A stretch of DNA of 63,989 bases, counting the filler, from Diploschistes diacapsis (Eukaryota), in the NCBI GenBank assembly GCA_023645945.1. It is 4 parts of 4 records of this genome, joined end to end, with 100 filler letters (N's around TTAATTAATTAA, not from the genome) between each part and the next. Parts side by side here need not be neighbours in the genome. Positions count along the whole stretch, not along the records: positions 33,557 to 50,194 come from JALAIB010000493.1; 3 more parts are not named here. One strand, written 5' to 3'. Made by a program: the position numbers and the translations under genes. Shown here one piece after another: positions 16,692 through 50,294 of this stretch; position 1 is the stretch's first letter, and each line of letters opens with the position of its first letter. The notes beneath the pieces are model-generated. The model had not been told where the DNA came from. It saw only the letters and a program-made list of their open reading frames with translations, and ran no database searches.

Positions 16692-16791
16692 NNNNNNNNN
16701 NNNNNNNNNNNNNNNNNNNNNNNNNNNNNNNNNNNTTAATTAATTAANNNNNNNNNNNNNNNNNNNNNNNNNNNNNNNNNNNNNNNNNNNN
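16692..16791. other. Assembly gap / artificial spacer N44-TTAATTAATTAA-N44
   Basis: Identical 100-nt spacer with stops in all six frames occurs three times in the window. Confidence 0.97.
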
Positions 16792-33456: not shown

Positions 33457-33556
33457 NNNNNNNNNNNNNNNNNNNNNNNNNNNNNNNNNNNNNNNNNNNN
33501 TTAATTAATTAANNNNNNNNNNNNNNNNNNNNNNNNNNNNNNNNNNNNNNNNNNNN
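33457..33556. other. Assembly gap / artificial spacer
   Basis: N44-TTAATTAATTAA-N44. Confidence 0.97.
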
Positions 33557-33847
33557 CCCCCGGCATGACCCCAAGTGCTGGCTGGCCAAGTGGGTGGAAT
33601 CTGATACCATCCTCTCCTCTTTTGATCGCTCGCTCGCTTGGAAGCCGGAACTTCGCGCCGTGTACGAGGCACTGCGGTTTGGGCTCCACACAGGGTCGCT
33701 GGAACTCGCACAGCTGGAAAAGGAGGGAAGTGGGCCGAGATGCGCTCACACTTGAAATCTTGAGGAAGAAGTTTTTCAACTCTTCTTGTCGCGTAAGGTC
33801 TAGGAGCTGGAGATGATATAACCTTTTTGGGGTTCATCTGTGCTAGT

Positions 33848-33978
33848 GGAAATATTAAGCAACGGTAGCGCGTCGGATTCCGGCGTGGACTTCCCGAAGG
33901 TAAACAATGATCAACCCCAAACATATTTCGTGTCTAATTATTAAATCTAGGTTCTGCGTTCGAATCGCAGTATTTTCA
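33848..33978 (+). tRNA. tRNA gene or pseudogene with Trp-like body and CCG anticodon, interrupted by an ~8-nt anticodon-loop intron and a 51-nt GT-AG intron in the variable loop
   Basis: Acceptor stem GGAAATA (33848-54)/TATTTTC (33971-77) + A73; D-loop AACGGTA; anticodon arm TCGGA-TTCCGG..T-CCCGA; variable loop AG|GTT; T-arm CTGCG-TTCGAAT-CGCAG; T-runs from about 33993. The D-stem is only half paired. Confidence 0.75.
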
Positions 33979-34789
33979 CTTCCATTCCCGTCTTTTTCTT
34001 TTTCGTGACTTTTTCTTTTTTATCAAGCTTTTTTCGAGATGCATTCATTAATTGATTTTTATTTCAGGGCTGTGCATACGATGATCAGTGTGTCAAACAA
34101 CCCCCCTAGGCACTGTTTTATGAATGTAATCATGCACTAGCCAGCTATACAACCAATATTCACGCCCTCACTGCGCAGCTTAGACTCGTGACGAACAAAG
34201 AATATTGCACCATCAAAAGGGATTGCAAGCGCTCCCTTGCATTACAGGAGGGTGCACCATAGCCCTTCTTCGAAGATCGACAAATGTACTCTGCATCAAT
34301 AGTATACCAAGGGAAAGCATCATCGAGCAGGGCGTGCTCCACACTTACTACATTTTCATGTAACAGGTCGCTCTTTCGTGTTATTTCCCATGCACTTAGA
34401 TATCTGTCCAAGTCCTCGGATACTAGTGAAATATTCAATCGCAAATTTGAGGGAAACATCGTGGACCCCGAAGTTCTTGAGTTGCTTGAATGTGGGTTTT
34501 ATGATCTCTTTGCATGATGCACCATATGGAGTTCTGCGGTCGAAGCTGTAGGACTCCATCGATCATCAAAGAGGTCTGCAGCCAAGTCTGGAGCCCAGAA
34601 GGCATATTTAACCATTCGCGAAGTGATTTGCGGCTGAAAGCAACGTCTTGCCGGCAAATTTGTAGGGCTTCTCCGTTTCCTAAACCGGCCCCAATCATCT
34701 CGGTGAGAAGGCAGTCTGAACCACCCGTTGGCCTCTCCCATTTCATCTCTTGAACTTCTGGTCCTGCTGTTGCTTTCTCAAACGCTGTG

Positions 34790-36600
34790 TCACGCAACAA
34801 GCTTCTTCTGTGCACGAGGCTTTATCGGATTCTTTGAACTCGGTGGCCTTTTATCAAGCAATTTTGCTTGAAGAGAGGTGGGAAAGGTGCCAAATTCCTT
34901 CACAGATACCGTGAGCTGGTTTGTTTTTATAGAAGGAATATCTGGATCCCTTGGGACGAACCTGCCAGAATTCTGACCCATATCCTGACAGCGTCTACAT
35001 ATCGGTTGTCTTTCAAAGTACAGCGGCCGAAACTCTCCAATATTCCACCTGGGAGATGCGTCGACAAAGAATACGACTGAGTTGTTCCATTTCAACTGGG
35101 GTTTTCTTTGCACCGTATGCACCAAGTTTCAGCAACATCTAATGTAGAAGGGCTCGCGGCATCTGACGGCCTTACCAATTTCCCCAGAGTGCGGCTTCAC
35201 GAGACTAAAATGAAAGCCAAGCATTATAATGATCATATCCATGGAATGTTTGCACCATTGAGAGGAATAGCTTCGTTTGCCATGACAGTCCTTTGCATTG
35301 CAATAGCGGACACATCGAGCTGAATAAACACCAGGACGCCTAATATGCCATCGAGTTGATCCGTCGAGTCGTCTTGTGTTGCAGTTCAAACAGGACGTAA
35401 CCAGGCGCTCATTGTTGAAACTGTGCCAAAGGTTTTGATGCGTTTGACAATAGGGAAGATTTGAGTTTGTTTCCCCATCATTTTCCTAAACATGATAGCA
35501 ATAGGCATAGTCTCCGTGATTGTAGATGACGTGCTGATATAATTTTCAAGACCAGAAGCAATGGCAGAACGTCCCAGATTGCTGCAGTGGAGTAGAATTC
35601 CCTATTGGCCCTGAACCACTCCAAAACGACTGGCGGGAATTCATATGGATGGGTCCAATTGGAGCTTGGATTGCCAGAGAGGTGATGGTCAATTTCCTGC
35701 ATTGCTCTTGGAAGAATTCTTCTAGGTGCGTCATTACCATGGAGTGTTTCATTGAAATATCCATCCCATACCTCGATTTGCAGAATCATTAGAATGTTTC
35801 TCGGAGCTACGGTGGGAATCACTGTACCCTCGGTTGATTATGGATAAGGTCGAGGATAAAGGCTAATGAAGCAGATTAGGAAGATCAACAAGATCTGGAA
35901 TTCACTTATGGGTATTTCGCTGGAGCAATCTCTGTTGCTTCGTTCGAAAATACTCAGGATGCAAAGGAGTATCGGTTGCACCGGTAGATTTCACTGCCGC
36001 AGCAACGATTTGCTCCTGTGTGGTTGTAAAAGGGTCGCCCACCCTTACGAAAGATAATGATTCTCCGAGACTTGTATCGCTTCTCCCAATTCTTGTAATT
36101 CCGCTCATGGCAAAGGATTGGAGCTATCCCAGCGGTACTATTGTGTATTCTGCGCAGTCAATATTCATCATCCTTTATTGAACAGCAAAACCATGAATAA
36201 TCTCAACTTTGGTAGCAGATGATTCGCGGACCAATTGAGTAAACTCCTCGTGGCAAGACAAGACAGGTGGTGGATATTCTCGGAAACCGTTTGACTCTGG
36301 GGACCTCCCATGTAGGTGATCGAAAAGGAGAGCCTCATTGGCCTTGTAAGCGTTTCCCATAACCATTATAACACACCCGTTAGTCCAATCGGCGACCTCT
36401 TCATCCTCCAGGTAATTTGTTGTGTAGGACGGCTGATGCAGTGATGACAAAGAATAGATTCTAGATGACCCGAAGGCTTGACAAGGAGGCTTTGAGACTG
36501 AGCTGCCATACCAGATGCTTCCAACTCTTTTGCTCCTTTCCTTTAATAACATTCCAAGTTCCATCTAGGTTCTCGATAGGCCTTTCCAGACCTACAAAAT
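34790..36600 (-). pseudogene. Fragmented gene for an unknown protein with two C-terminal Cys-rich (CxxC...D..RW...Y..R..C..C) modules
   Basis: Consecutive minus-strand ORF pieces (36564-36175, 36108-35902, 35822-35478, 35389-35129, 35125-34790) separated by stops and frameshifts; the two modules resemble each other. Confidence 0.5.
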
Positions 36601-38240
36601 AGAAATCTCGCCGCCGAAACTGCGAGGTGTGGAATAGCATTCCAATAAGCCGAAGATGATGTTGATCAAGGCCGGATTTGAGAGGGTGAGCCAGCGTAAT
36701 ATTTCCGAAAATGACAAAGTCCTGAGAAAACAGTGTACTAGCAAGGCTTTGCTCATTGAGGACGAAATAGGCTGAAGCGATCGAGCTATTTTCCGGACTC
36801 TCCTGGAGGCATGCAGGAATTGGTCAGGTCAGTGGTGTTTCCTGACGATCAATAGTCACTTAACTCAGGATTTGGCGGTGTATCGGATACTCCCAAGGTC
36901 TCCTTGGAGCGTGGGCAGTCAGCATTTCACAGGCAAGAAATGCAGGAGGAATTTCTCCATAAGACAGACAGGGGCCATCATACAGCTTTCAAGATTACAC
37001 TTGTGGACCAGAATAATAGCAATTTGCACAGCGATTTCACATGAAGTCATTTTTGATCGCGCACATGGAAAAGATTTCAAGACCTGATCGACAGTTCGAG
37101 CAAGCCTCCGACGATAGTTCCCCATGAGTTTGCCAAACCGCTGCTACCTTCTTCACCTGGGTGTCAAGCAATGTTCTTGGACCTGTCCAGCTGCCGTTCA
37201 TCAATGGCTGATTGTGATTTCTGGAGGCCGCAACGGATTTCTTTTGATGCGCTACGGCAAGCTAAGCCGTCAAAAAAGTCTCGAAGGGGTCAAGGCTGTG
37301 TTGGAGATATGATGATTTCCTGCTTTCAATGCCTGAGTCCGCCATGAGGGTCGTAAGAATTTCATTCCTTTCGAAGCAACAATTCTCGAGATCAGGAATT
37401 TTGGAGCTCTTCCTAGGAGTATGTAGGTATAACAATCACAGTACGGAACCATATAAAAGAAGAGAACAGGAAGGTAGAAGGTACGGAAATACTGTTTTGT
37501 ATTAGAGTGTATCTAGACTAAAAACTTCTCAGTTCAATCCACCTTTCTGTGTTAGTGTTTGCACTAAAGCCCTAAACCTAGATCTTATAAGCGTAGCTGG
37601 ACTGACCGATCCAGCTCAAGGTTCCAGAAGTAGTACGTTCGTAGTAGTATGTATTAGGGCGTTAGCTGGTGGCTGATAGATTTTAGAACTCGTGAAGATC
37701 CTCATGCTATGTAGACTTAAGGTAGTTTGAACCAATGCGGCTGTTGCTTCGGATGCCTCGATGTGCCCTTTTGAACAGGAGGGGGACGAGCATAGCAGGC
37801 TGAGGCTCTGTTTGCTCACATGGCCAGGGGATTTGATATTCGCCACTGAGGCTCTGCTATTCACTACGGGGCTAGCGTACGAGATGGAAGGAAGAGAAGG
37901 CAGGAACGGTGCCCAGTTTTGTAGGCTCCGGCTATGGCTGTTCATTCAAGAGCCAGCGGTAAGCCGGAATAGATACCGTCTGATGTCTGCTGTTTGCTGA
38001 AAGATACCACTCTCTCTCTGAAAGATGAACATATTGTAAACGGTTTCGAACGAGGAGCAGAAGGCAGAAGGCAGTTGAGGAAAATCACCTCCACAGGATT
38101 AACAAAAGTAATGACGTAGGTTATTTGACAGCTCTACCGGCAACAACGTGAGTTATGTGTACCTATTCATTGCTGCTTTCACAATTGGCCTCACCGTAGC
38201 AAAATATCGAGCCTTCATATGTGGTATCCATGACCTCTTC

Positions 38241-39380
38241 ATGCAAAAGACCTTTATGCGAATACCCTACACGGGCCCCCTTCCACCACCGCAGATAGTC
38301 CCTCGAAGCGCAAATACCCCTGTTGGTGCCATTCATGCTCTCCAGCAATTCCTGACCGCTCCGTCCACCGATGGAAGCCTCTTTGTCAGGGACGGTGCCT
38401 CTAAGACGGTTCTGCTCACCGGCGCTGGCCTCTCGGTAGCCTCCGGCCTCGCCGACTACCGCGGAACAGCCGGCACCTACACCCTCAACAAAACCTACCG
38501 ACCCATCTACTATAGCGAGTTTCTAGCCTCCCACGAAGCACGCAAGCGCTACTGGGCCCGGAGCTTCCTGGGCTGGACGAATCTACATCGAGCCCGTCCC
38601 AACGCCGCGCACCATGCTGTCGGCGACCTGTCCCGACTAGGCCTTCTGAGCAGCGTCATCACGCAGAATGTCGACAGCTTCCACTTGCACGCGCATCCGG
38701 AGCTGCCGACGCTCGAGTTGCATGGGTATCTGCGTTCGCTCGTTTGCGTGCATTGCCGTACCGAGCTACCCAGAGATGAATTCCAGGAGAGCCTCTCGAA
38801 TCTGAACCCGGCGTGGGCGGCCTTCTTGGCGGAAATGCTGGAGGTCGGCGCGCTGGAGACGGAGAACCCGGACGAGAGGAGGAAGAAGGGCTTGAAGACG
38901 AATCCGGACGGGGACGTCGATTTGCCGGATGCGCCATACTCGACGTTCAGATACCCGGCTTGTCCGACGTGCCTTGCGAATCCGCCTAAGCTGGCTGATG
39001 GCTCGAAGGGGAGAGTGGAGGTGGATGCTGACGGTGCTTGGACGGCGCAGTCGACGGCCGGCGTGCTCAAGCCCGCGGTCATCATGTTTGGGGAGTCGAT
39101 CAGCGCTCAGGTCAAAGAGGCGGCGGAGAGAGCGATTGACGATGCTGGAAGGATGCTGGTGGTAGGTAGTAGTCTGGCTACGTATTCGGCTTGGAGGCTG
39201 GTGAAGCGAGCGCATGAGCAGAAGATGCCCCTTGCTGTGTTGAATATAGGAGGGGTGCGGGGCGAGGAGAACTTCTTTGAGGCGGTCGACTCTGGAAACA
39301 AGGGAGAGTTGGGAGTAAGGTGTAGCGAGAAAGCCGAGAAGGTGCTGCCTGATCTTGTCACAATTCTACGTACTGGGTAA
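38241..39380 (+). CDS. NAD-dependent protein deacylase, Sir2 family class II (SIRT4-like)
   Basis: LLTGAGLSVASGLADYRG, RKRYWARSFLGW, ITQNVDSFH, ELHG.L...VCVHC, NPDGDV, LKPAVIMFGE, VGSSLATYSAWR. Likely ATG 38241 (MQKTFMRIPY). Confidence 0.93.
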   Translation: MQKTFMRIPYTGPLPPPQIVPRSANTPVGAIHALQQFLTAPSTDGSLFVRDGASKTVLLTGAGLSVASGLADYRGTAGTYTLNKTYRPIYYSEFLASHEARKRYWARSFLGWTNLHRARPNAAHHAVGDLSRLGLLSSVITQNVDSFHLHAHPELPTLELHGYLRSLVCVHCRTELPRDEFQESLSNLNPAWAAFLAEMLEVGALETENPDERRKKGLKTNPDGDVDLPDAPYSTFRYPACPTCLANPPKLADGSKGRVEVDADGAWTAQSTAGVLKPAVIMFGESISAQVKEAAERAIDDAGRMLVVGSSLATYSAWRLVKRAHEQKMPLAVLNIGGVRGEENFFEAVDSGNKGELGVRCSEKAEKVLPDLVTILRTG

Positions 39381-39665
39381 AGAAGGCCAGGCACCCCGGA
39401 TGATTCTGCTAGAAGAGACAAGCAGGTCGCTCGACAAAGAGAGCAAGCATTCAATCGCATGGAGTGAGATAGACAGGTTCACATATGGGCCTAACTTGTA
39501 CATATGATTGCTGAAAATTAAAGCGTTAATATTTCCTCCATTGTCTGCTCTATCTCTTTTGGTTTCTGCCATGGCCTATAAATTGGGTATCTTCCATTGC
39601 GCCACGCTCAAAAAAGGTCTTGCAAATGACCATACCATTGTCCTATCAATCAGCCGAATGATCGC

Positions 39666-40340
39666 CTATAGAATCAGCTCTTCCACGCGCCAATCCTCAT
39701 AGCTAACCATCGAATTAGCGCCCGTGTAGTGAGAGGTGCACAAACGACTCACAAGCCACCGGGCAACGGTCGTCGAACAATAATCGGAAGTTTCTTCTGC
39801 TTGAGCTCCTTCTCCGCAATCCTGACCGGATCAGTCTCACCTTCCAGATCGACCAGAACCGGCGCATTGTTTCTGTAGAGAAGCCACTGTTAGCCACACA
39901 CCCACAACCCTTCCTCCTATCTCCGTCGCGCATCCACTCACGCAATCTGAGTCGCCCTGCTCCCCAGCACACGAGCCTTCTCGTACTTCGTCAAGTAGGG
40001 AGAAGTACTGCGCTCATTATCCGGAATCCGAATCTCCTTGTACTGGACCGGCGCGTTCTTCCCTTCGACAGGGGCGCGCACAACCTGGCGCTCACTGCCA
40101 TTCGCACCCGCGGCGGCCGCGTCAACGCCTGCGCCGGCGTTGTTGTCGTTGTCGCCATCATCGCCCTCGTGGGGCGGTGTCCCATCAACTTCAGGCTCTA
40201 AGGGCCCTTCAGGCATGAAGTCACCCTCGCCCCCGAAGCTGGGAAAGGGTCAGTGAGGGGCACCGCTTTTTTTGGTGTGAAAGGGAAGAGGGGATAGGGA
40301 GTTGAGATACGTACTTATCGTCGTATCCGTCGTCGGACAT
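39666..40340 (-). CDS. RPB6: RNA polymerase I/II/III shared subunit Rpb6 (RPABC2), 4 exons
   Basis: Exons 40340-40315, 40238-39942, 39872-39753, 39702-39666. Acidic N-terminus; [35 protein letters not shown]...KEL...[19 protein letters not shown]. Confidence 0.92.
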
Positions 40341-40777
40341 TGTAAGGTGTTGAAGTTTTGAGAGCGATTAGGGCTATGGTGTCCACGAGTCCAAGATTCT
40401 CGCAATAGTATGATCTCGTTTGATGGCGATGAGGGTTGCTGTCAAGCGTTATAGAGCCTAGAACTGTAACGAAGTAGGATTAGCGTGGAAGTGCTCCGTG
40501 ACGTCATGGGAACAAGTCTGGAAAGCTTTAGAAAACTCGGAATGCTGATTGGGTCGTTTAACCTGTCATTATCAAACCGCATCTTGCCCTAAGTTTGCAA
40601 GATGGATATACAGGAAATCAAGACAATTTGGGAGGATCTAAATTACCTGTGCTATGATCATATGATCTGGACTACATAGTCAAAGTCCATAGGGGCGAAT
40701 CAGCACGATATCCTTGACCATTAACCTGACGTAGCTTTGAAACATTGCACTGGCATAAGCACCCATCTCCAGCAAAC

Positions 40778-42635
40778 ATGGATGGGCCCTTAGCCATTCG
40801 GAAGAGGAGGGCAAATAGTCAAACGGCTCCTGTGGTCAAAAGGGCACGTCTTGCTTGCAATAATATCCCAGAAGAAGGTTGGATATTTATATCTATCTTC
40901 CACAAAAAAGCGTACATGCTGATCAGATCCAGCTCCTACCCCAAATCGTGGACCTGATGATTTTTCAGAAGAATCTCTTTCAGAGGAAGAAGACATCGAG
41001 CCGGCAACTACCTTGTCAACGCCAATGTCAATGTCGGCTCCTTCGACACCAAAGCCTCTGCCACCATGCCGCTCGAAGCATCTTCCATGCCCCTATCCTG
41101 GATGCGACAAGTTATTCAACCGCCCTACGAGACTAGAGGAACATAAACGCTCACATACTAATGACCGTATCTTCAAGTGCAACGTGCCCAAATGTGGCAA
41201 GGATTTTCTCCGTGACAGCCATCTGAAGCGCCATGTGCTTTCTGCTCATACTGACCAAAGAGACTACATCTGCACCTTTGAAGACTGCGACAAGGGCTTT
41301 GCAACAGCACAACGCCTCAAGCGCCACCTCTCCCTCCATGAAGGCCGTGAGAAGTATCGCTGCCGCATAGACGGCTGCGGCCAAACCTTCCGCAAGCATG
41401 CGACGCTCGACAAGCACCAACGCACTGCGCACGAAGGCGGTGACGCATTTCCTTGCCATGAACCCACCAAAGACGGCATTCCATGTCCCAAGGGCTTTGA
41501 CACGGCTTACGCCCTGAAACTCCACAAAGGCCGCTGTCACGGTGCAAAAAGCTACTTTTGCACCCTCTGCCCTGGCACCCTCTCTGAAGACCCTTCCTCC
41601 CAACAATCCCTTGGCCTCGGCTTCGGCACCTACGCCGACCTCCAGGCCCACAACGCCCTCGTGCACCCACCTACGTGCCCCAGTTGCTCCTTCGCAGCGC
41701 GCACCCAGAAGGAACTCCAACACCACATCTCTCAGCGCCACATCTCCGGCCCTCCCAACCCTTCACAAAGCTACATCTGCCCCCACGACATTTGCCGCGG
41801 CCAAACCTTCGCCCGCAAAACGAACCTTACCACCCACCTCAAAACTGTCCACTCCAGCACAAGGGCCTTCGTCTGCGGCACCCTTCCCCCAAGCGCACTG
41901 AACAACATCCCTACCTGGACCGGCGCCGACGCCTGCGGCCGCGCGTTCAAAGCCAAACAGGGGCTGGAAGAACACATTCGCACCGCACACCTCGGCCTCG
42001 ACAACAGGACCACGGCAAGGCAGAAGCGGCTCGGTACACACATCGTGCCCGTGGACAAAAACCTTGCAAATGCGAATCAAAGAGGAAAAGACACGACGCT
42101 CGGCAAACTCACAGGCACCGCATACGCCGAGAACCCGAAGCGCACGATACCCTGCGCAGTGCTGGGCTGCGCGTACTTGTTCACGCGGCATTATGACCAC
42201 GAGCTGCATTTGCGCTGCAAGCATGGCGTCAGTCCCGAGGACGTGCCGGGGCTCGTGGGGCAGAGGGAACCGGAGTGGCTGTCTGCCACTGCCACTGCTA
42301 CTTTCTCCGCGGACCTGGCGGCGGATAACCATCATAATAACAATCACGACGATTGGGCCGCCGAGTTCGAAGCGGGTGCGCGGCACGGCGGCAGCTTTTG
42401 GATCGGGGGCGTGGGTCAGGCGGAGGAGTTTGGGGGCGACGAGGATGATGGACAGTCGGGCTTCTCTGGCGTTGCTGGAAACTTTGCAAAGGATAGAGTC
42501 TGGGATGGCGAGGCGAGGGAGATGTTTGATCTCGTGGACGGGACGTTTGGGGACGATGACGAGGCGTTGGCTCAGGATGGGAATGACTTTGAAGGAGATG
42601 CGGCGATGCAGCCGATTGATCCTATGCTTTTCTGA
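40778..42635 (+). CDS. PZF1: Transcription factor IIIA (multi-C2H2 zinc finger)
   Basis: Exon 1 40778-40877, intron 40878-40926, exon 2 40927-42635. About 10 C2H2 fingers starting CPYPGCDKLFNRPTRLEEHKRSH; head-to-head with RPB6 as for yeast RPO26/PZF1. Confidence 0.85.
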
Positions 42636-42769
42636 GCTCGATTTGGGACGAAAAAAGGTATGGTAGTTTATTGAGTGGTGTTACTGTTGCTTGAGGTTGC
42701 TGGATTGGGAAGTACTTGCATGCAATGGTGTACTGTGTCTGATTACAGTGGGAAGAAGAAAGAGGGAGC

Positions 42770-42795
42770 GAGAGAGAGAGAGAGAGAGAGAGAGA
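42770..42795. repeat. (GA)n microsatellite
   Basis: Perfect GA run downstream of TFIIIA. Confidence 0.85.
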
Positions 42796-43328
42796 TTGCA
42801 GATTCGGAATCTTTCGTAGCGTTAGAAGCGATCTACAGCGGTATTCAATTGCAGATTTATGTCACTGTGCTAGTATCTGGGCTGCGGAGCTTCAATCTAT
42901 AATGCTAACAGATCAACAGACTACCAGATGTGTTTTTCGGAATTCCAATCGCAAAGGTGAAGCTCATTTCCGGACAATGGTAGAAAACTTTTCGCTTGTC
43001 CAAGGTGCTAGTCAACGGCCTATCAATCTTGAAAGAGTTGTCCCATGTCAAGAACACATTGGATGCACCGGTTATGATGTGATTATTGGCTAAAGCTATG
43101 TGCTAGCATAACGTGTCAATAATCCAATAAGTGACACCCAGGAAAATGATATGACCCCCCGGCTAGACACAATACTGGAGCTGAAGCTGGACATTGTGTG
43201 TAAACAAAGAGCGCCACGACTCCATATCGCCTGATGTGGGTATCCAGTCCCATAGTCCGACACCGTCAATAATACACCAGCTTACAGTTCCTGTAATTCC
43301 CTTTTGGTCATGTATGTTTCACCCATCT

Positions 43329-46300
43329 CTATCCCTGGAAGCAGCCCGCTCCGATCCCCAAGTTCATCCGCGTAAACTTCACAAACATAACCGGCGTCTG
43401 CTTCGTTGGGAAAGCAGAGACCTGGTCCCCACTGACCGCGGGCCCTTTGCCCTTTTTCTTGCTCCCGCCCGAGCTCGCACCACTCCCACTAGCAGCCGCG
43501 CTTACGGTCGTCGTGGAAGATCCTCCCTGTCCATCAACTCGAGTTCCCATACCGCCTTCGCCTACGATCTTACCTTGGCCCATGCCGTCCGTTTTATTGG
43601 TATCCCAGAGACGCACGGTCCCGTCGCTGCCACCGGTCAGTAATAAAGAGCCTTCGACATTCCAAGAAATTGACCAAATTCCGCCGCGGTCGTGGCCGCG
43701 CATTCGCTTGATTAGTCTGCCCTGCGCGAGGTCCCAAAGTATAATGATACCATGATCATCGGCTGTGGCGAGGACTTTGCCTGTCGGGCTGCACGCCATG
43801 GAGGTGATATAGCCCGTGTGGCCAGTAAATAGGCGTACACAGTTGCCGTTCGTGCAGGCAAACATGCGTACTGTACGGTCGGAGGCGGCTGTGAAAGTGT
43901 ACGCACCGTTGGGGTGGAAACAGACGCAGTCCAGTGGCTGATCATGGCCAACGAACCAGCGCAGGGGGGCCCCCTTGGCGGTGCTCCAGAGATGAGCTTT
44001 CTTGTCATGGCCAGCGGAAAGGAAATAGTAGCCGAATGGGCCCCAGGTGACGTCGAATACTGGGCCAAGGTGCGACTTGTAGACCATCATCTGTTTCATG
44101 AGACCGAGGTGCCACATACGAATCGTATGGTCGGCAGAGCAGGATAGAAGCCACTCTGTACCCATGTAGGGATGGTTTGAACGTTCTTCAAAGCTTTGTT
44201 CGGCTCTATCTGGTTGATCGATGGCGGGTGAAAAGGAAAGGCCGTAGACGGGGCCCGAGTGTCCGATCAGACGTTCGCTGGCGACTTTTTGGCCTTTGCG
44301 CATAGTCTTCAACGGAGTGCCATCCATCGTAAAGATACGAATGTAATGTTCCAAAGTCCCAATGGCGATCAGATTGTTGTCTTCGGAAATCGCCATGCAG
44401 GTAACGCTTTCCACAAATTAGCTTTCAGGGTCGTTTAGAGGAATGGGATCTTACCTGTCCTGCGTGTTGTGAAAAGTGTACATGCAGACTGAAAGCTTAT
44501 CCTTTTGCGGCTCGATCTTGAACCTATCGCGATATTCCTTGATCTTGAGCACTTCCATTTCAACGTCTCTAGCTTTTGACGGGGGATATGGGAGCTCGGT
44601 ACGGCTTGGGGCGTCATCAGTTTCCTCCTGTTTGATTCGACTGGTGAATTCACTGGTGAGCGTAGGACGACCGTCTACCGCAGGGTTCTTAGAGTCTTCT
44701 TCCTGTAACTCTGCGAGGACATCTTCGAAGAGAGTCGGCTCCATTGGGAGTGGTCCAAGCTTCAAGCGTGTCAGATTCGAAGACGCAGTTCCAGTGTTCT
44801 GACCAGGGTTATGTCCAGGAATGCCTTCATCCTCGGTAGGCCAATTAGAATCCACGCTAGTCCGGCCCAGTATTTTCTCGATGGCATTCGCGTCAGAAGT
44901 AACTCTATCAACAGTCTTGAGATCCATGTTTTCGGTCATGATTTGCAGAGCGCCAAGTCCTCCAGAGTACAGCTTGGATTCCAGAAAGGTTGTCAGTTGC
45001 TCATATGCAGCATTAGACAGCGTGAGCCGGTATTTATCAGACATGAAGGTTTTGGCGATCGAGGAGTCCTTGAGGTGCTCAGGCAAGCCCAGCATCTCCA
45101 AATTGCGGACATCTTCAGGGTGATCGAGTACGAACTTTTCCTTGTACTTCTTAAAAAGGTCCGTTGCGGGTTCAGTGAACCCTTCAGAAAATGTTCTGAG
45201 GAATGAATAGACGAATATGGGCCATAAGAGGCGTTTGAATTCTCCCTTTGACAATTATTTAGAGTCGGAAGATAGGGGAAAGTGTAAGGAACCTTATAGA
45301 TATCCAGCACCGTCCCTGAGAACTGATCGAGTAGCTCTGGAGCCTCTATAAGCGATAATAGCCAAGCTGGACGGATTTACTTACGCAACGCGTTGGCATA
45401 CTTGGTGGCGGCGGCATGAGAACCACTAATCAATGGTCGACCTTCATTTTCCTGCGCGGCTGATTCTATTCTAAGCATAGCTTCCGTCCTACTATATCCC
45501 TTTTTGGAAAGATATTCGATAACCTGTTGGAATCTTCTGTCAGCATGCCAGCGGTACAGTATTCTTTGGGAATGGAAATCCATGCTAGATGAATATTGTG
45601 CTGGTGATTGCAAGGACAAGGGAACACTAGGTATGAAAACCCCAGATCTAGACAGTGTAAAATAATCCATCTTGGGCCAGCGTGTGCATGCCAGTGAGCC
45701 AGAACTGTGTATGCGTGTACGCCGTTGGTTAAAGGAAAGGGGGACGAGAAGGGATGCAATACAAATCAAGCAAAAGTGCTGTTGTCATACCGTCTCCGTG
45801 AGTGGGTGGCTCTTAACCAAAGTGGAAGTCACAGTAGAAGTAACAATAGAAGGCGCGATTGAAGTCACAGCAGGGCCTGGCGGCATACTTCCTATTAACG
45901 TTGGAGGGGAACCTATTAACGTCGTAGGGGAATCCATATGGGAATTATGCTCGACCTTGAGCGCATGGTCTTGGGTCGATGGATGAGGGGGTCCGGCATT
46001 TGCATCAAGCTCAACCTTAATCGGAGAGTAACCCGCATCAGAATCACGCTCGACCTTAATCCGGGTGTAGTCCATATCTGAATCACGCTCGACCTTGATC
46101 GGAGGAGAGTCCGCACCTAGGTTGGGCTCGATAGACTCGATGGCATTGTGTTGTGCCGCCGGAGGGTAGTCCACAGCGGAGCATGGCTCGATCTGAATCG
46201 CGTGGTCTTGGGCCCATTGCAAAACGGACTGATACTGCTGGCGTCCTTCTGGCGTTTGGTCCCACGGGTGACAGCCCTCACATGAGCAGGCAGTATGCGG

Positions 46301-46455
46301 CATGGTGTCCGAGCATATAAAGTACTTCGGAATAAAAAAAAATAGTAGAGAAAGCTTACAATTTGATTAAGATTCTGCTGTGACATCTGCCCTGTCTGAG
46401 CTCCAGATGCCACTGGCGTTGCCGGGACTCCATCACTGCGAGCCTGAGCCGACAT
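43329..46455 (-). CDS. TAF5: TFIID/SAGA subunit Taf5 (LisH, NTD2, WD40)
   Basis: Exon 1 46455-46360 (..MSQQNLNQI), 836-nt intron to 45524, then VIEYLSKKGYSRTEAMLR, EFKRLLWPIFVYSFL, SVCMYTFHNT and WD40 repeats (LIGHSGPVY, CVCFHPNGAY, FTGHTG), ending TKQTPVMFVKFTRMNL. Further short introns near 45.3 and 44.4 kb. Confidence 0.93.
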
Positions 46456-46922
46456 AGTTCTTTCCTTGTCGTTCTTTCTTGATGATGATGCTCACCGCAC
46501 CTTACCCCAAATTCTACCTCTCAGTTCCTGCTGAATTTGGCATATCCCGTGGCACAAGCGCTACTGCAAGCAATCAGGAGACCAGACTTGTTGGCATTCT
46601 AGATTTCAAGCTGTGGCAGAAATGGGATGAAATTTGGGCTAAAAACACGAAAGCAACAAATTTTGGGGTGACTAAGCATCTCCTTGCACATGCGCAATCA
46701 TGTGACTGTAACTTTATTATGGAATTGAGCCGTGTTTAGGAACAACTCATCGACGGAGCGATACGTCAAAGAGCACCCAAGTGATATTAAAAAAACATAC
46801 ATGACCTGCTTGGAATAGTTGCTTGTCTATTCGTGGTCATGTCCCGGCAAGAAAAAGTCTCATATTCCTTACTGTCTGCCGAATTTCTCCAATATATACA
46901 CATTGTCTGCATGTGAAGAGAA

Positions 46923-47514
46923 ATGGATGTAGCGGGCGATAATGCTGAGAACGGGGCTAAAACCTCTTGCACTGGAATTTCACGATCTCGGAGAATCCTA
47001 GAACTTAACGAGATCGATCAGGCTAGTCACGTCACCACTTACGCTACGAGCGAGGCAACTAACATCACTATAGAACATAGCCAACGTTCTCAAGTTAGCG
47101 GGGCAGGCTATCAAAACGCTCGGCACCTTCTCTAACGAAGGGGGCGACCCTCAGCCTCTCTCGGCGGGTGAACGAAAGAAAGCTTTCACCGACGCAGTCT
47201 CCGAGTTCTACAGGCTACTGAGCGTGGTAGACGTCAACCTCCGCCGGCAGATACTTGCTCTCGAAGAAGCTGGAATCATTCCCTTCGGAAAGAGAGACAT
47301 ACCTGGCGAAGGTGACGCTTCAGCTGGCCAGGGCAAGGCTGTCAGGGAATCGGGAGGGCTCGGGAACCTGGACGTTGGCTGGCTGAACAGTAGGAATGAT
47401 AAGGTTGGGAAGGAGATGGAGGCAGAGCTTTGGATGCAGGCACGTGAACTAGTGGATAGTCTGGTTGCTGACAAGAGGGAAAATTCTAGCACAGAAGAGA
47501 TGGATAGGTCATGA
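46923..47514 (+). CDS. MED11: Mediator subunit Med11, 2 exons
   Basis: Exon 1 46923-47021 (..RILELNEIDQ), exon 2 47074-47514 (NIANVLKLAGQAI..VDVNLRRQILALEEAGII..LGNLDVGWLNSR.DKVGKEMEAELW). Confidence 0.85.
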
Positions 47515-48061
47515 GTATTGTGATACCCCGGCAAATGGAGCGCTTGAACCGCTGCCAAAAGGCCCAACGTTGCTCGTTCTAGGAACCCCACCATCTAGTG
47601 GAATCTTGAGACCCAAATCTATCTATTGCTCCTGGCGGACAGTCACAAGCATCGCACTGAAACTTGGAGAATGGAAGAGCCTAATGTTTCTTATGCTTTG
47701 AGACTAGTAAGGTAGATGGGAGGCACCTGCCATAGTAGTCAGTGATAGCTCGCTGCCTGCCTCATATATCGAGACTATTGAGTCGTCCCTCCAACATTAA
47801 CGCGTATTTTCTGTGTCCTTCAACATCTCAATTTTTCGTAATAGTAAGAAGTGCTTTCAGTAGCAGCTAAAGAGATGGGAAAGTCAAAAAGAGCTTCAGA
47901 CCTTGCTGAAAAAGCGGGCCAAGCGCTCGCCTGTAAGATCGGAGATGGCGCCCGTGGATTACCGAGATCAACAACCCAAGCTTTCTTCTTCACCTCAATG
48001 GTCAATTACCACTCTTAGGAGCTTCGACATACAGAGCGACGTTTCAAGTGCGGTCGCAAGG

Positions 48062-50194
48062 ATGGACACTGAGGACTCGCCTTGGGGAGGTCAGTTCATG
48101 TTTCAAGTCGACTTTGTGTCTATTTGCTAAACTCGACCAGATATGCCATCAAGGGGTTCGCAACAGGACCTCGCAGCAGCTAAGGAAAATGAAGAGTCGG
48201 GTATAGTTAAAACTGTAGCTTTCAGAGAAGCAAGGCTAAAATATGGAAGGAGAAGCGCAAAAAATAAAACCGACACCCTCGAATCTATCTTCATCCAACC
48301 CGCCCCGTTCTCCTGCCGGCCGCGGCCCTCGAACTCCCCGAACACCCCGTCGAGCTGAGCTGCAGCCTACTCGCCTAGAAGCTTTGGATGGTGGACAAGG
48401 GCCGTTAGGACCTCTAGGCGAAGAATCGCTGGCGCCGGATACAGGCCCTACGCCACCATTGAAAGAGCAAAACCTGCCCACGAGAACAAACCAGCAACCA
48501 AGAGGCCGAGCCCCAAATGCAGGCGCAGGTGCAGGCGCAGGAGTAGAAACTGGAGCTGGAGCAGCAGCTAGACCAGACACATTTGGCGCCGATGCGCCCC
48601 AAAACTTGAGAAGAGGCCCGCCACCTGTACGGCCCCCACCGTCAGTTCTTGAGAACAGGCGACAAGCGCAACCGAGCGTGAGCGTGGAGCAAGCTGCAAA
48701 GCCCTCCTTCAGCATTACAGTCGGTGACCCGCACAAAGTGGGGGACCTAACGAGCAGCCATATCGTCTATCAAGTCGGAACAAAGGTAAAGCTCCTCATC
48801 CCCCCATCATCCGTCTTATCTTATCGTCATTACTACCCGGACCTCGCCTGAACTAACGTACTTTCCTTTGGCAGACCTCATCTAAAGCTTACAAACTCTC
48901 CGAATTTACCGTCTCCCGTCGCTACCGGGATTTCCTCTGGTTATACACATCCCTGCACACCAACAACCCCGGCATCGTTGTTCCCCCACCCCCAGAAAAA
49001 CAAGCCGTTGGCCGCTTCGACACGAATTTTGTCGAGTCCCGACGCTCAGCCCTCGAGCGCATGCTCAACAAGGTCGCCACCCACCCTATTCTACAACACG
49101 ATTCGGACCTGAAGATATTTCTTGAAAGCGACGCCTTTGCCATGGATGTCAAGCACCGTGAGCACAAGGAGCCCCTAGCTCTGGGAGACGGGTCTGGGAA
49201 GTCGGGCGGCATGTTTTCGAGCCTGGGACTAGGTGGCGGAGGCGGCGGCAAGTTCGTAGAGCACGACGACTGGTTCCACGACCGTCGGATATATCTCGAC
49301 GCGCTAGAGAACCAGTTGAAGGCGCTCCTCAAGTCCATCGACACCGTCGCCGCGCAGCGCAAGATGCTCGCCGAGGCCGCGGGCGACTTCTCCGCCTCCC
49401 TGCACGCTCTGGCGGCAGTCGAGCTAAGCCCCAGCCTCTCCGGCCCGCTGGAGGGCCTGAGCGACATCCAGCTGCGCATCCGTGAGCTGTACGAGCGACA
49501 GGCGCAGACGGACGTGTTGACGCTCGGCATCACCATCGACGAGTACATCCGCCTTATATCTTCCATTAAGACGGCCTTCCAGCAGCGCCAGAAGGCCTAC
49601 CACACCTGGCACGCCGCCGAGTCGGAGCTCGCCAAGCGCAAGGCGACGCAGGACAAGGTGCTGCGCAGCGGCAAGACGCAGCAGGACAGGTTGAACCAGC
49701 TGCAGGCCGACGTGGGCGAGGGCGAGCGGAGGTACCACCAGGCGAGACTGCTGTACGAAGACATGGGGCAGCTGATGCGCGGAGAGCTGGAGCGGTTCGA
49801 GCGGGAGAAGGTGGAGGACTTCAAGGCCGGACTGGAAACGTTCCTCGAAGGCCAGGTCGAGGCTCAGAAGGAGGTGAGCAGACGTTCCTTAGCCCAAGCT
49901 TCCTTTCCTCGTTCCTTCTTTTCCCCAATCCAAACCCAACATCCAGCACCCTCAACCCCTATCATTCATTCCTTCCTTCCTTCCTTGCCTCCCCTCGGCA
50001 CAAAGTACCCTGTACATTCCACCGGGCTAACTCCACCCCCACGGGGGCCGTGCAAAAAACAGCTCATCGAGCTCTGGGAAACATACCTCATGCAGCTCGA
50101 CGCCGACGGCGGCGCCGCCGCCGACCAGCCCTTTTTCAGACCCCACGTCATGCAGACCGAGCCCCTGATCCCTCGGACTGGGGCTGGGGCTGGG
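48062..50194 (+). CDS. VPS5: Retromer sorting nexin (PX-BAR); runs into gap
   Basis: MDTEDSPWG first exon; PX domain FSITVGDPHKVGDLTSSHIVYQV..VSRRYRDFLWL..PGIVVPPPPEKQAVGRFDTNFVESRR; BAR domain ..ELERFEREKVEDFK..EAQKE|LIELWETY. Confidence 0.93.
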
Positions 50195-50294
50195 NNNNNN
50201 NNNNNNNNNNNNNNNNNNNNNNNNNNNNNNNNNNNNNNTTAATTAATTAANNNNNNNNNNNNNNNNNNNNNNNNNNNNNNNNNNNNNNNNNNNN
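50195..50294. other. Assembly gap / artificial spacer
   Basis: N44-TTAATTAATTAA-N44. Confidence 0.97.

Follow-up and report, generated by a model that had tools for sequence, protein, structure and literature searches.

An intron-like insert in a probably decayed tRNA-Arg(CCG) gene copy of the lichen-forming fungus Diploschistes diacapsis

Spliceosomal-type introns in genes that do not encode mRNA, as in fungal small nuclear RNA (snRNA) genes and lichen ribosomal DNA (rDNA), are the main natural evidence for reverse splicing of introns into abundant RNAs and their return to the genome. Ectopic spliceosomal introns were reportedly described by Bhattacharya et al. in 2000 from the nuclear rDNA of lichen-forming ascomycetes, and mRNA-type introns in fungal U6 snRNA genes are said to have been described by Tani and Ohshima in 1989 and 1991 and by Canzler et al. 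in 2016. According to one source, ectopic introns of the spliceosomal kind are present in lichen rDNA, and yeast excised an intron of this kind from RNA polymerase I (Pol I) transcripts (PMC8527467). Another states that the U6 transcript of fission yeast, a Pol III product, contains an intron excised by the spliceosome and ascribed to reverse splicing, that unrelated U6 introns occur in many fungi, and that spliceosomal introns are also found in U1 and rRNA genes (PMC5855946). Non-canonical tRNA introns are reported from Archaea and algae in a third source (PMC4033280). For tRNA genes, a full-text literature search returned no report of a spliceosomal intron, as judged by titles and the opening lines of abstracts. 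Here we describe a tRNA-like locus at positions 33848-33978, plus strand, of a 63,989-nucleotide (nt) stretch of Diploschistes diacapsis DNA (assembly GCA_023645945.1), called the window below. We favor, at a probability of roughly 0.55, the reading that this locus is a nonfunctional, decaying tRNA-Arg(CCG) relic carrying an ectopic intron-type insertion.

The window consists of four pieces of about 16.6 kb each that were artificially joined, with no genomic adjacency across the joins, which are spacers of the form N44-TTAATTAATTAA-N44 (an all-frame stop linker) at 16692-16791, 33457-33556, and 50195-50294. The locus begins 290 nt into piece 3 (33557-50194). Its tRNA-derived parts and the T runs that follow are listed here.

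33848-33883, plus strand: tRNA 5' part (RF00005 alignment, ARAGORN cloverleaf after in silico deletions, and sequence)
33848-54, plus strand: acceptor 5' strand GGAAATA, pairing with TATTTTC at 33971-77 (7 pairs, including one G-T)
33857-71, plus strand: defective D-arm, preceded by T8 and T9, with D-loop AACGGTA and D-stem AAGC/GCGC
33873-77, plus strand: anticodon stem 5' strand TCGGA, preceded by G26 (sequence)
33880-82, plus strand: anticodon CCG, within the anticodon loop TT-CCG-G (sequence)
33884-33891, plus strand: 8-nt insert at the canonical 37/38 tRNA intron position (an 8-nt intron in ARAGORN; register ambiguous by one base)
33892-33899, plus strand: nucleotide 38, anticodon stem 3' strand CCCGA, and variable-loop A44 and G45 (sequence, RF00005, and ARAGORN)
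33951-33978, plus strand: tRNA 3' part, comprising variable-loop GTT, T-arm, acceptor 3' strand TATTTTC, and discriminator A (sequence and RF00005)
33954-70, plus strand: T-arm CTGCG-TTCGAAT-CGCAG, perfect, with the B-box-like GTTCGAATC (sequence)
33993-34034, plus strand: cluster of T5/T6 runs resembling a Pol III terminator (runs at 33993, 33999, 34010, 34016, and 34029)

The tRNA family model RF00005 aligned over its full length (1-71 of 71) to 33848-33978 on the plus strand, with 20.9 bits and an E value of 0.041 for the 261 nt searched. This score, obtained with the inserts in place, is lower than the RF00005 gathering score of 29 bits. The cmscan alignment placed a 52-nt insertion in the variable region and skipped 14 nt in the anticodon loop as a local gap. 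No RF00005 match reached the gathering score anywhere in the window, and ARAGORN in default mode reported no gene at the locus in the unedited sequence. With 33900-33950 deleted in silico, ARAGORN, at 97% of its threshold, found a tRNA-Arg(CCG) that contains an 8-nt intron, and with both inserts deleted it reported tRNA-Arg(CCG) at the default threshold. As a control, 60 block-shuffled windows (3.82 Mb) gave one match in default mode and 43 at -i -ps97. The full-length RF00005 alignment, together with the ARAGORN call after the deletions, therefore identifies the locus as tRNA-derived, of the tRNA-Arg(CCG) type, with a large insert between nucleotides 45 and 46. The first downstream T run lies 15 nt past the discriminator.

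An earlier interpretation, made by inspection of the letters and here called the sequence-only reading, had anticipated much of this anatomy. The acceptor, D-loop, anticodon stem, T-arm, GTAAAC, CTAAT, TAG, and T runs that it had listed were all correctly placed in the sequence. Removal of 33900-33950 leaves the variable region AG/GTT, as it had proposed (here and below, a slash between an exon and the insert or an intron marks the junction), and the RF00005 insertion was placed there. The insert of about 8 nt that it had noted at position 37/38 is present in the sequence and was called as an intron by ARAGORN. Its expectation that standard tRNA searches would miss the locus was borne out by the default ARAGORN run and the Rfam search at gathering score, and the tRNA score on which it had made its proposal depend was obtained both from the unedited sequence with RF00005 and after in silico deletion with ARAGORN. 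At lowered thresholds, ARAGORN also offered a tRNA-Ile(TAT) with a single 57-nt intron, which was rejected because it ignores the anticodon arm aligned by RF00005. A mitochondrial origin of the AT-rich acceptor stem, as a nuclear copy of mitochondrial DNA (NUMT), was provisionally set aside on composition, the exons being 51% GC, and on the CCG anticodon.

The large insert has the following features.

33900-33950, plus strand: intron-like insert of 51 nt between nucleotides 45 and 46 (cmscan insertion; the sole GT-AG register)
33900-33905, plus strand: GTAAAC, resembling a 5' splice site, after exon AAG (sequence; position +5 is A, not the usual G)
33934-33938, plus strand: CTAAT, resembling a branch site, with the branch A 13 nt from the insert 3' end (sequence)
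33948-33950, plus strand: TAG, resembling a 3' splice site, with an exon G next (sequence)
33898-33901 (left) and 33949-33952 (right), plus strand: 4-nt direct repeat AGGT bracketing the insert (sequence)

Judged by its sequence, the insert carries the 5' site, branch motif, 3' site, size, and AG/G context of the host's mRNA introns, and it looks like a U2-type intron in having AAG/GTAAAC, CTAAT 13 nt from its end, TAG/G, and a length of 51 nt. Its GC content is 29%, versus 51% for the tRNA exons. Host introns were represented by a filtered set of 19 candidates at 10 acceptor sites, plus one intron verified by homology. An unfiltered set of introns joining open reading frames (ORFs), with 551 candidates in 64 clusters, was dropped as too noisy in GC-rich regions. 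The length of the insert falls within the 44- to 89-nt range of the ORF-joining candidates, and a candidate donor with G at +5 was present at 8 of the 10 ORF-joining acceptor sites. The verified intron (48786-48874, plus strand, 89 nt) belongs to a Vps5/sorting-nexin gene and has the nonconsensus donor AAG/GTAAAG, also with A at +5; on PDB chain 6h7w, exon 1 runs to residue 30 and exon 2 starts from residue 31. The likeness to host mRNA introns in size and signals that the sequence-only reading had pointed out is thus seen both in this length range and in the verified donor. The Pfam PX profile starts inside exon 2 of the Vps5/sorting-nexin gene and says nothing on exon continuity.

Among the 18 deletions that would leave a variable loop of 4 to 6 nt, GT-AG ends occur in 1, namely, 33900-33950. 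The window holds 23,786 GT..AG segments of 40 to 90 nt, and 311 of them (1.3%) have a YAG end together with CTRAY 9 to 20 nt from that end. In composition-matched shuffles of the insert, YAG and CTRAY were found together in 4.5%, and in 2.2% when a purine at +3 was also demanded. The joint chance for a random insert is only about 0.3% (18/256 x 0.045), a rough product before any look-elsewhere correction. The intron-like look of the insert is unlikely as pure chance. The AGGT repeat fits either an AG/GT proto-splice site or a 4-bp target duplication or microhomology, and it does not discriminate between these origins.

This repeat is the starting point of one alternative, in which an ordinary tRNA pseudogene received an unrelated 51-bp insertion (filler DNA, for example, or the footprint left by a transposon, with a duplication of the 4 bp AGGT) and CTAAT and TAG arose by chance. 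GT-AG ends would follow automatically from such a duplication, leaving the branch and acceptor motifs to coincidence. Segments of the GT..CTRAY..YAG type are common: the window has 311, and those in the gene-poor 4.5 kb that surround the locus end at 9 distinct acceptor-like sites. The AT-rich composition of the insert lifts the chance of CTAAT to 8.8% of shuffles. The donor is also without G at +5, and very many windows were scanned at the first stage, so a look-elsewhere effect applies. We nevertheless consider coincidence unlikely, given the low joint chance, a size within the intron range of the genome, the AAG/G exon context, and signals that survive five substitutions in a relative.

The host is a lichen mycobiont, a lecanoromycete fungus. 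The one sequencing run that contained every word sampled from the window carries the label lichen metagenome. The best named relative of a sirtuin-4-like protein encoded in the window comes from Thelotrema lepadinum (85% identity), and its other named matches are mostly from lichen-forming ascomycetes. The insert resembles the rDNA introns of lichens in having a lichen-mycobiont host, a short length (about 50 to 60 nt), mRNA-type signals, a location in a non-Pol II gene, and an AG/G-type site. In contrast, those introns were shown to be removed from rRNA, whereas the present case is one defective-looking Pol III tRNA-type locus known from sequence. With the fungal U6 introns, the locus shares a spliceosomal-type intron in a Pol III small RNA gene, for which reverse splicing, reverse transcription, and recombination have been proposed. 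However, U6 lies within the spliceosome's active site, which explains its targeting, and a tRNA does not. The genes that hold the U6 introns are also essential, conserved, and functional, and the splicing of those introns is known, whereas the tRNA-like locus looks defective. That the insert truly records the reverse splicing of a spliceosomal intron into a pre-tRNA, with the gene surviving or not, is a tentative proposition to which we give slightly less than even odds.

Several defects were found in the tRNA body. The D-stem has 2 of 4 pairs, with 10-25 (A·C) and 11-24 (A·G) broken, and the anticodon stem has 4 of 5, with an A31·C39 mismatch. The A-box consensus is TRGCNNAGTGG, and the A box of the locus is degenerate, nucleotides 9-11 (T, A, A) departing from this consensus; the half-paired D-stem and weak A box had both been remarked on in the sequence-only reading. 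The two inserts lengthen the spacing between the A and B boxes by 59 nt, and a T4 run lies inside the gene at 33973-76, within the acceptor 3' strand TATTTTC. The predicted minimum free energy (MFE) of the precursor was -28.4 kcal/mol, versus -18.3 kcal/mol with the cloverleaf enforced. For the in silico mature RNA, the cloverleaf was at -13.2 kcal/mol versus an MFE of -17.3 kcal/mol, a gap of 4.1 kcal/mol. A strong 8-bp hairpin at 33869-33887 (plus strand), formed by CGCGTCGG with CCGGCGTG, is the dominant element of the predicted fold of the precursor, in competition with the anticodon arm; in it, the 3' strand of the D-stem and the 5' strand of the anticodon stem are joined to the anticodon and to the first part of the 8-nt insert.

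Sequence from a relative, X2, with 117 places unlike the window over 2931 nt (4.0%), allowed a comparison across the locus. One X2 contig of 175 nt spans 33860-34034 without gaps and has 11 differences, 8 of them with listed positions. Five substitutions fall in the 51 nt of the insert (33918, 33926, 33930, 33941, and 33948 T>C); the last makes the insert end in CAG, so that YAG is preserved. The 5' GTAAAC, CTAAT, and the final AG of the insert are unaltered in X2, the only relative covering the locus, and the sequence-only reading, which had staked its case on GT/CTRAY/AG being kept in homologs, is borne out there. By our own estimate, the splice signals would survive five substitutions by chance about 1 time in 3, so this support is weak. 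The 3' exon has 2 changes in 28 nt, of which 33969 A>C disrupts T-stem pair 50-64 and 33972 A>G converts an acceptor T-A pair into T-G. A further difference lies just downstream of the tRNA, at 33979. Overall, the visible tRNA exons in X2 have at least 2 changes per 68 nt, which is about the background rate of 4.0%; at the distance of X2, no difference is expected in a tRNA gene under constraint.

Just upstream of the tRNA 5' end, 33804-33841 is hypervariable in X2. One contig has 7 substitutions and 2 indels in this segment, and in a second contig 36 nt are replaced by 5 other letters, at a depth of 27 versus 64. This variation suggests two haplotypes or strains.

The sequence-only reading had proposed a working Pol III tRNA that needs two splicing machineries, that is, a functional tRNA-Arg(CCG) whose precursor requires the tRNA splicing endonuclease for the 8 nt at 37/38 and the spliceosome for the 51 nt at 45/46. 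The structural defects and the exon changes in X2 leave this proposal unsupported, and we regard it as very improbable. The near-universal G10 is lost from a D-stem with only half of its pairs, and to this are added the degenerate A box, the A31·C39 mismatch, the T4 run inside the gene, a thermodynamically disfavored cloverleaf, and a score under the Rfam gathering threshold. In X2, a T-stem-breaking change and roughly neutral exon divergence are seen where identity is expected of a functional tRNA at 4% distance. Some of the evidence does speak for a working gene: the tRNA model match is complete, ARAGORN makes a call, the B box, acceptor stem, and terminator are intact, and in X2 the splice signals are conserved and the insert has changed faster than the exons (5/51 versus at least 2/68), although not significantly so. 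In fungi, precursors of U6 (Pol III) and of rRNA (Pol I) are also known substrates of the spliceosome, and the host belongs to a group known for ectopic rDNA introns.

In comparison with canonical eukaryotic 37/38 tRNA introns, the 8-nt insert (33884-91) fits in position, in length, and in containing TGG, a possible pairing partner of the anticodon CCG. The insert of 51 nt is unlike them, since 45/46 is not at the position gauged by the eukaryotic tRNA splicing endonuclease. A tRNA intron of the endonuclease type at a non-canonical position, with the bulge-helix-bulge known from Archaea, red algae, and nucleomorphs, is extremely improbable here. The 3-4-3 form of this motif was absent at the two junctions in both the MFE and the cloverleaf-constrained folds, and the precursor was no more stable than shuffled sequences (z = -0.54; 55 of 200 shuffles at least as stable). 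Such introns are known at non-canonical positions outside fungi, and two introns in one tRNA gene, one of them non-canonical, are described for Archaea, Cyanidioschyzon, and nucleomorphs (PMC4033280), a pattern that the present locus shares. It differs from them in having no bulge-helix-bulge, in its GT-AG ends and branch motif, and in its fungal host.

No second copy of the locus was found in the 64-kb window. The depth of the X2 contig over the locus was 64.6, versus 74-93 for its neighbors; being like that of the neighbors, this depth indicates that the locus is single copy. A check for an introner-like or mobile intron found no second copy of the insert in the 64-kb window, with X2 depth over the insert equal to that of its flanks. 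The locus resembles tRNA pseudogenes and the tRNA heads of short interspersed elements (SINEs) in its degraded D-arm and A box, neutral-looking divergence, and sub-threshold family score. However, it is single copy and retains a terminator and its own 37/38 intron, and the retention of both indicates an original gene locus rather than a retro-copy. A tRNA-derived SINE was rejected on two grounds: both the window and the X2 depth show the locus as single copy, and T runs come directly after a complete tRNA 3' end.

The locus lies in a 4.5-kb stretch of lower GC content (44 to 49%) at 33557-38100. None of the 11 ORFs of this stretch matched Pfam, leaving it without a recognizable coding gene. 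Around the locus, dinucleotide indices gave no signature of repeat-induced point mutation (RIP), and no notable repeats were found; together with the Pfam result, these led us to reject a RIP or transposon relic around the locus. The same stretch is about 95% conserved in relatives X2 and X3 despite having no Pfam-recognizable ORF, and at 34160-36823 it contains adjacent minus-strand ORFs of 110 to 130 amino acids each without a family match.

In such a setting, the locus might lie inside a Pol II transcript, a noncoding RNA or an untranslated region, in which case the 51 nt would be an ordinary spliced intron gained at the AG/GT of an exonized relic. Pol II transcripts gain introns far more often, the stretch around the locus has no recognizable coding gene, and no X2 differences are listed for 33612-33808, just upstream. 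We consider this explanation improbable, since no plus-strand ORF spans the tRNA-like locus and the downstream T5/T6 cluster resembles a Pol III terminator. The upstream frame 33558-33752 had no Pfam match in any of 4 translations and no homolog among the longer proteins searched, the latter being weak evidence. The contig begins 290 nt upstream, so any upstream gene is out of view.

In a second relative, X3, from a rock metagenome, the contig no longer follows the window upstream of 34133, where 96 letters are unlike. X3 covers none of 33570-34059, and no contig joins across the locus, so X3 is uninformative on presence or absence; its locus may be rearranged or without the tRNA-like element. 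A metagenome scan with a 25-nt stretch of the tRNA 5' half gave no matches. With a 17-nt sub-stretch, at least 118 loci were matched, and ARAGORN, run so as to allow introns, reported no tRNA in any of the 118 matches listed; the stretches inspected were GC-rich and without tRNA features. These 17-nt matches are due to chance, and neither an ortholog nor a parent tRNA-Arg(CCG) is among the matches listed.

A decaying pseudogene, a caveat that the sequence-only reading had itself raised, is the best fit to the structural defects and to X2 changes near the background rate. In the favored history, a single-copy nuclear tRNA-Arg(CCG) gene copy would have been decaying while still having a short endonuclease-type intron at 37/38, and an AGGT site between nucleotides 45 and 46 would have taken up 51 bp. 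This insertion is most likely of the ectopic intron type, given its size, its composition, and an AAG/GTAAAC, CTAAT, and TAG/G like those of the host's spliceosomal introns. The tRNA has most likely been nonfunctional since the insertion or before, and it would be drifting at a roughly neutral rate. We infer that the insert is not spliced.

Several points weigh against the decaying relic. The donor of the insert is without the usual G at +5, and neither a parent intron nor a second copy of the insert was found within the 64-kb window, in which its best match elsewhere is 13 nt long. Nor is damage seen in the perfect T-arm and B box, in the acceptor stem of 7 bp, or in the T runs that resemble a terminator. 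In X2, the exons have changed less (at least 2/68) than the insert (5/51), a difference that is not statistically significant, and up to 3 more differences lie near the contig ends, probably in 33860-33889 or 34005-34034. One of the exon changes keeps pairing (T-A to T-G), and the splice signals are all retained. This pattern of change resembles what might be seen in a functional intron-containing gene, with none of it statistically significant.

Three neighboring genes were noted downstream in piece 3. The sirtuin-4-like deacetylase (Pfam SIR2) is encoded at 38241-39377 on the plus strand, 4 kb downstream of the locus. It is followed by a gene for a multi-C2H2 zinc-finger protein at 40923-42635 (plus strand), with a weak match to TFIIIA fingers, and by a WD40 TAF5-like gene with short introns at 43329-45784 (minus strand), whose identity was judged by eye from the translation only.

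On present evidence, the locus is most likely a dead gene copy, and its value is therefore that of a lead for a survey of lichen fungi, not of a demonstrated new pathway. Should the gene be functional, it would represent the first case of a spliceosomal intron interrupting a tRNA gene, missed by standard tRNA finders, and tRNA precursors made by Pol III would be among the substrates that the spliceosome can handle. If the insert is truly the footprint of an intron, tRNA pipelines that allow introns only at 37/38 may miss such loci, and the reverse-splicing mechanism would be extended to tRNAs, in a lineage already known for ectopic rDNA introns.

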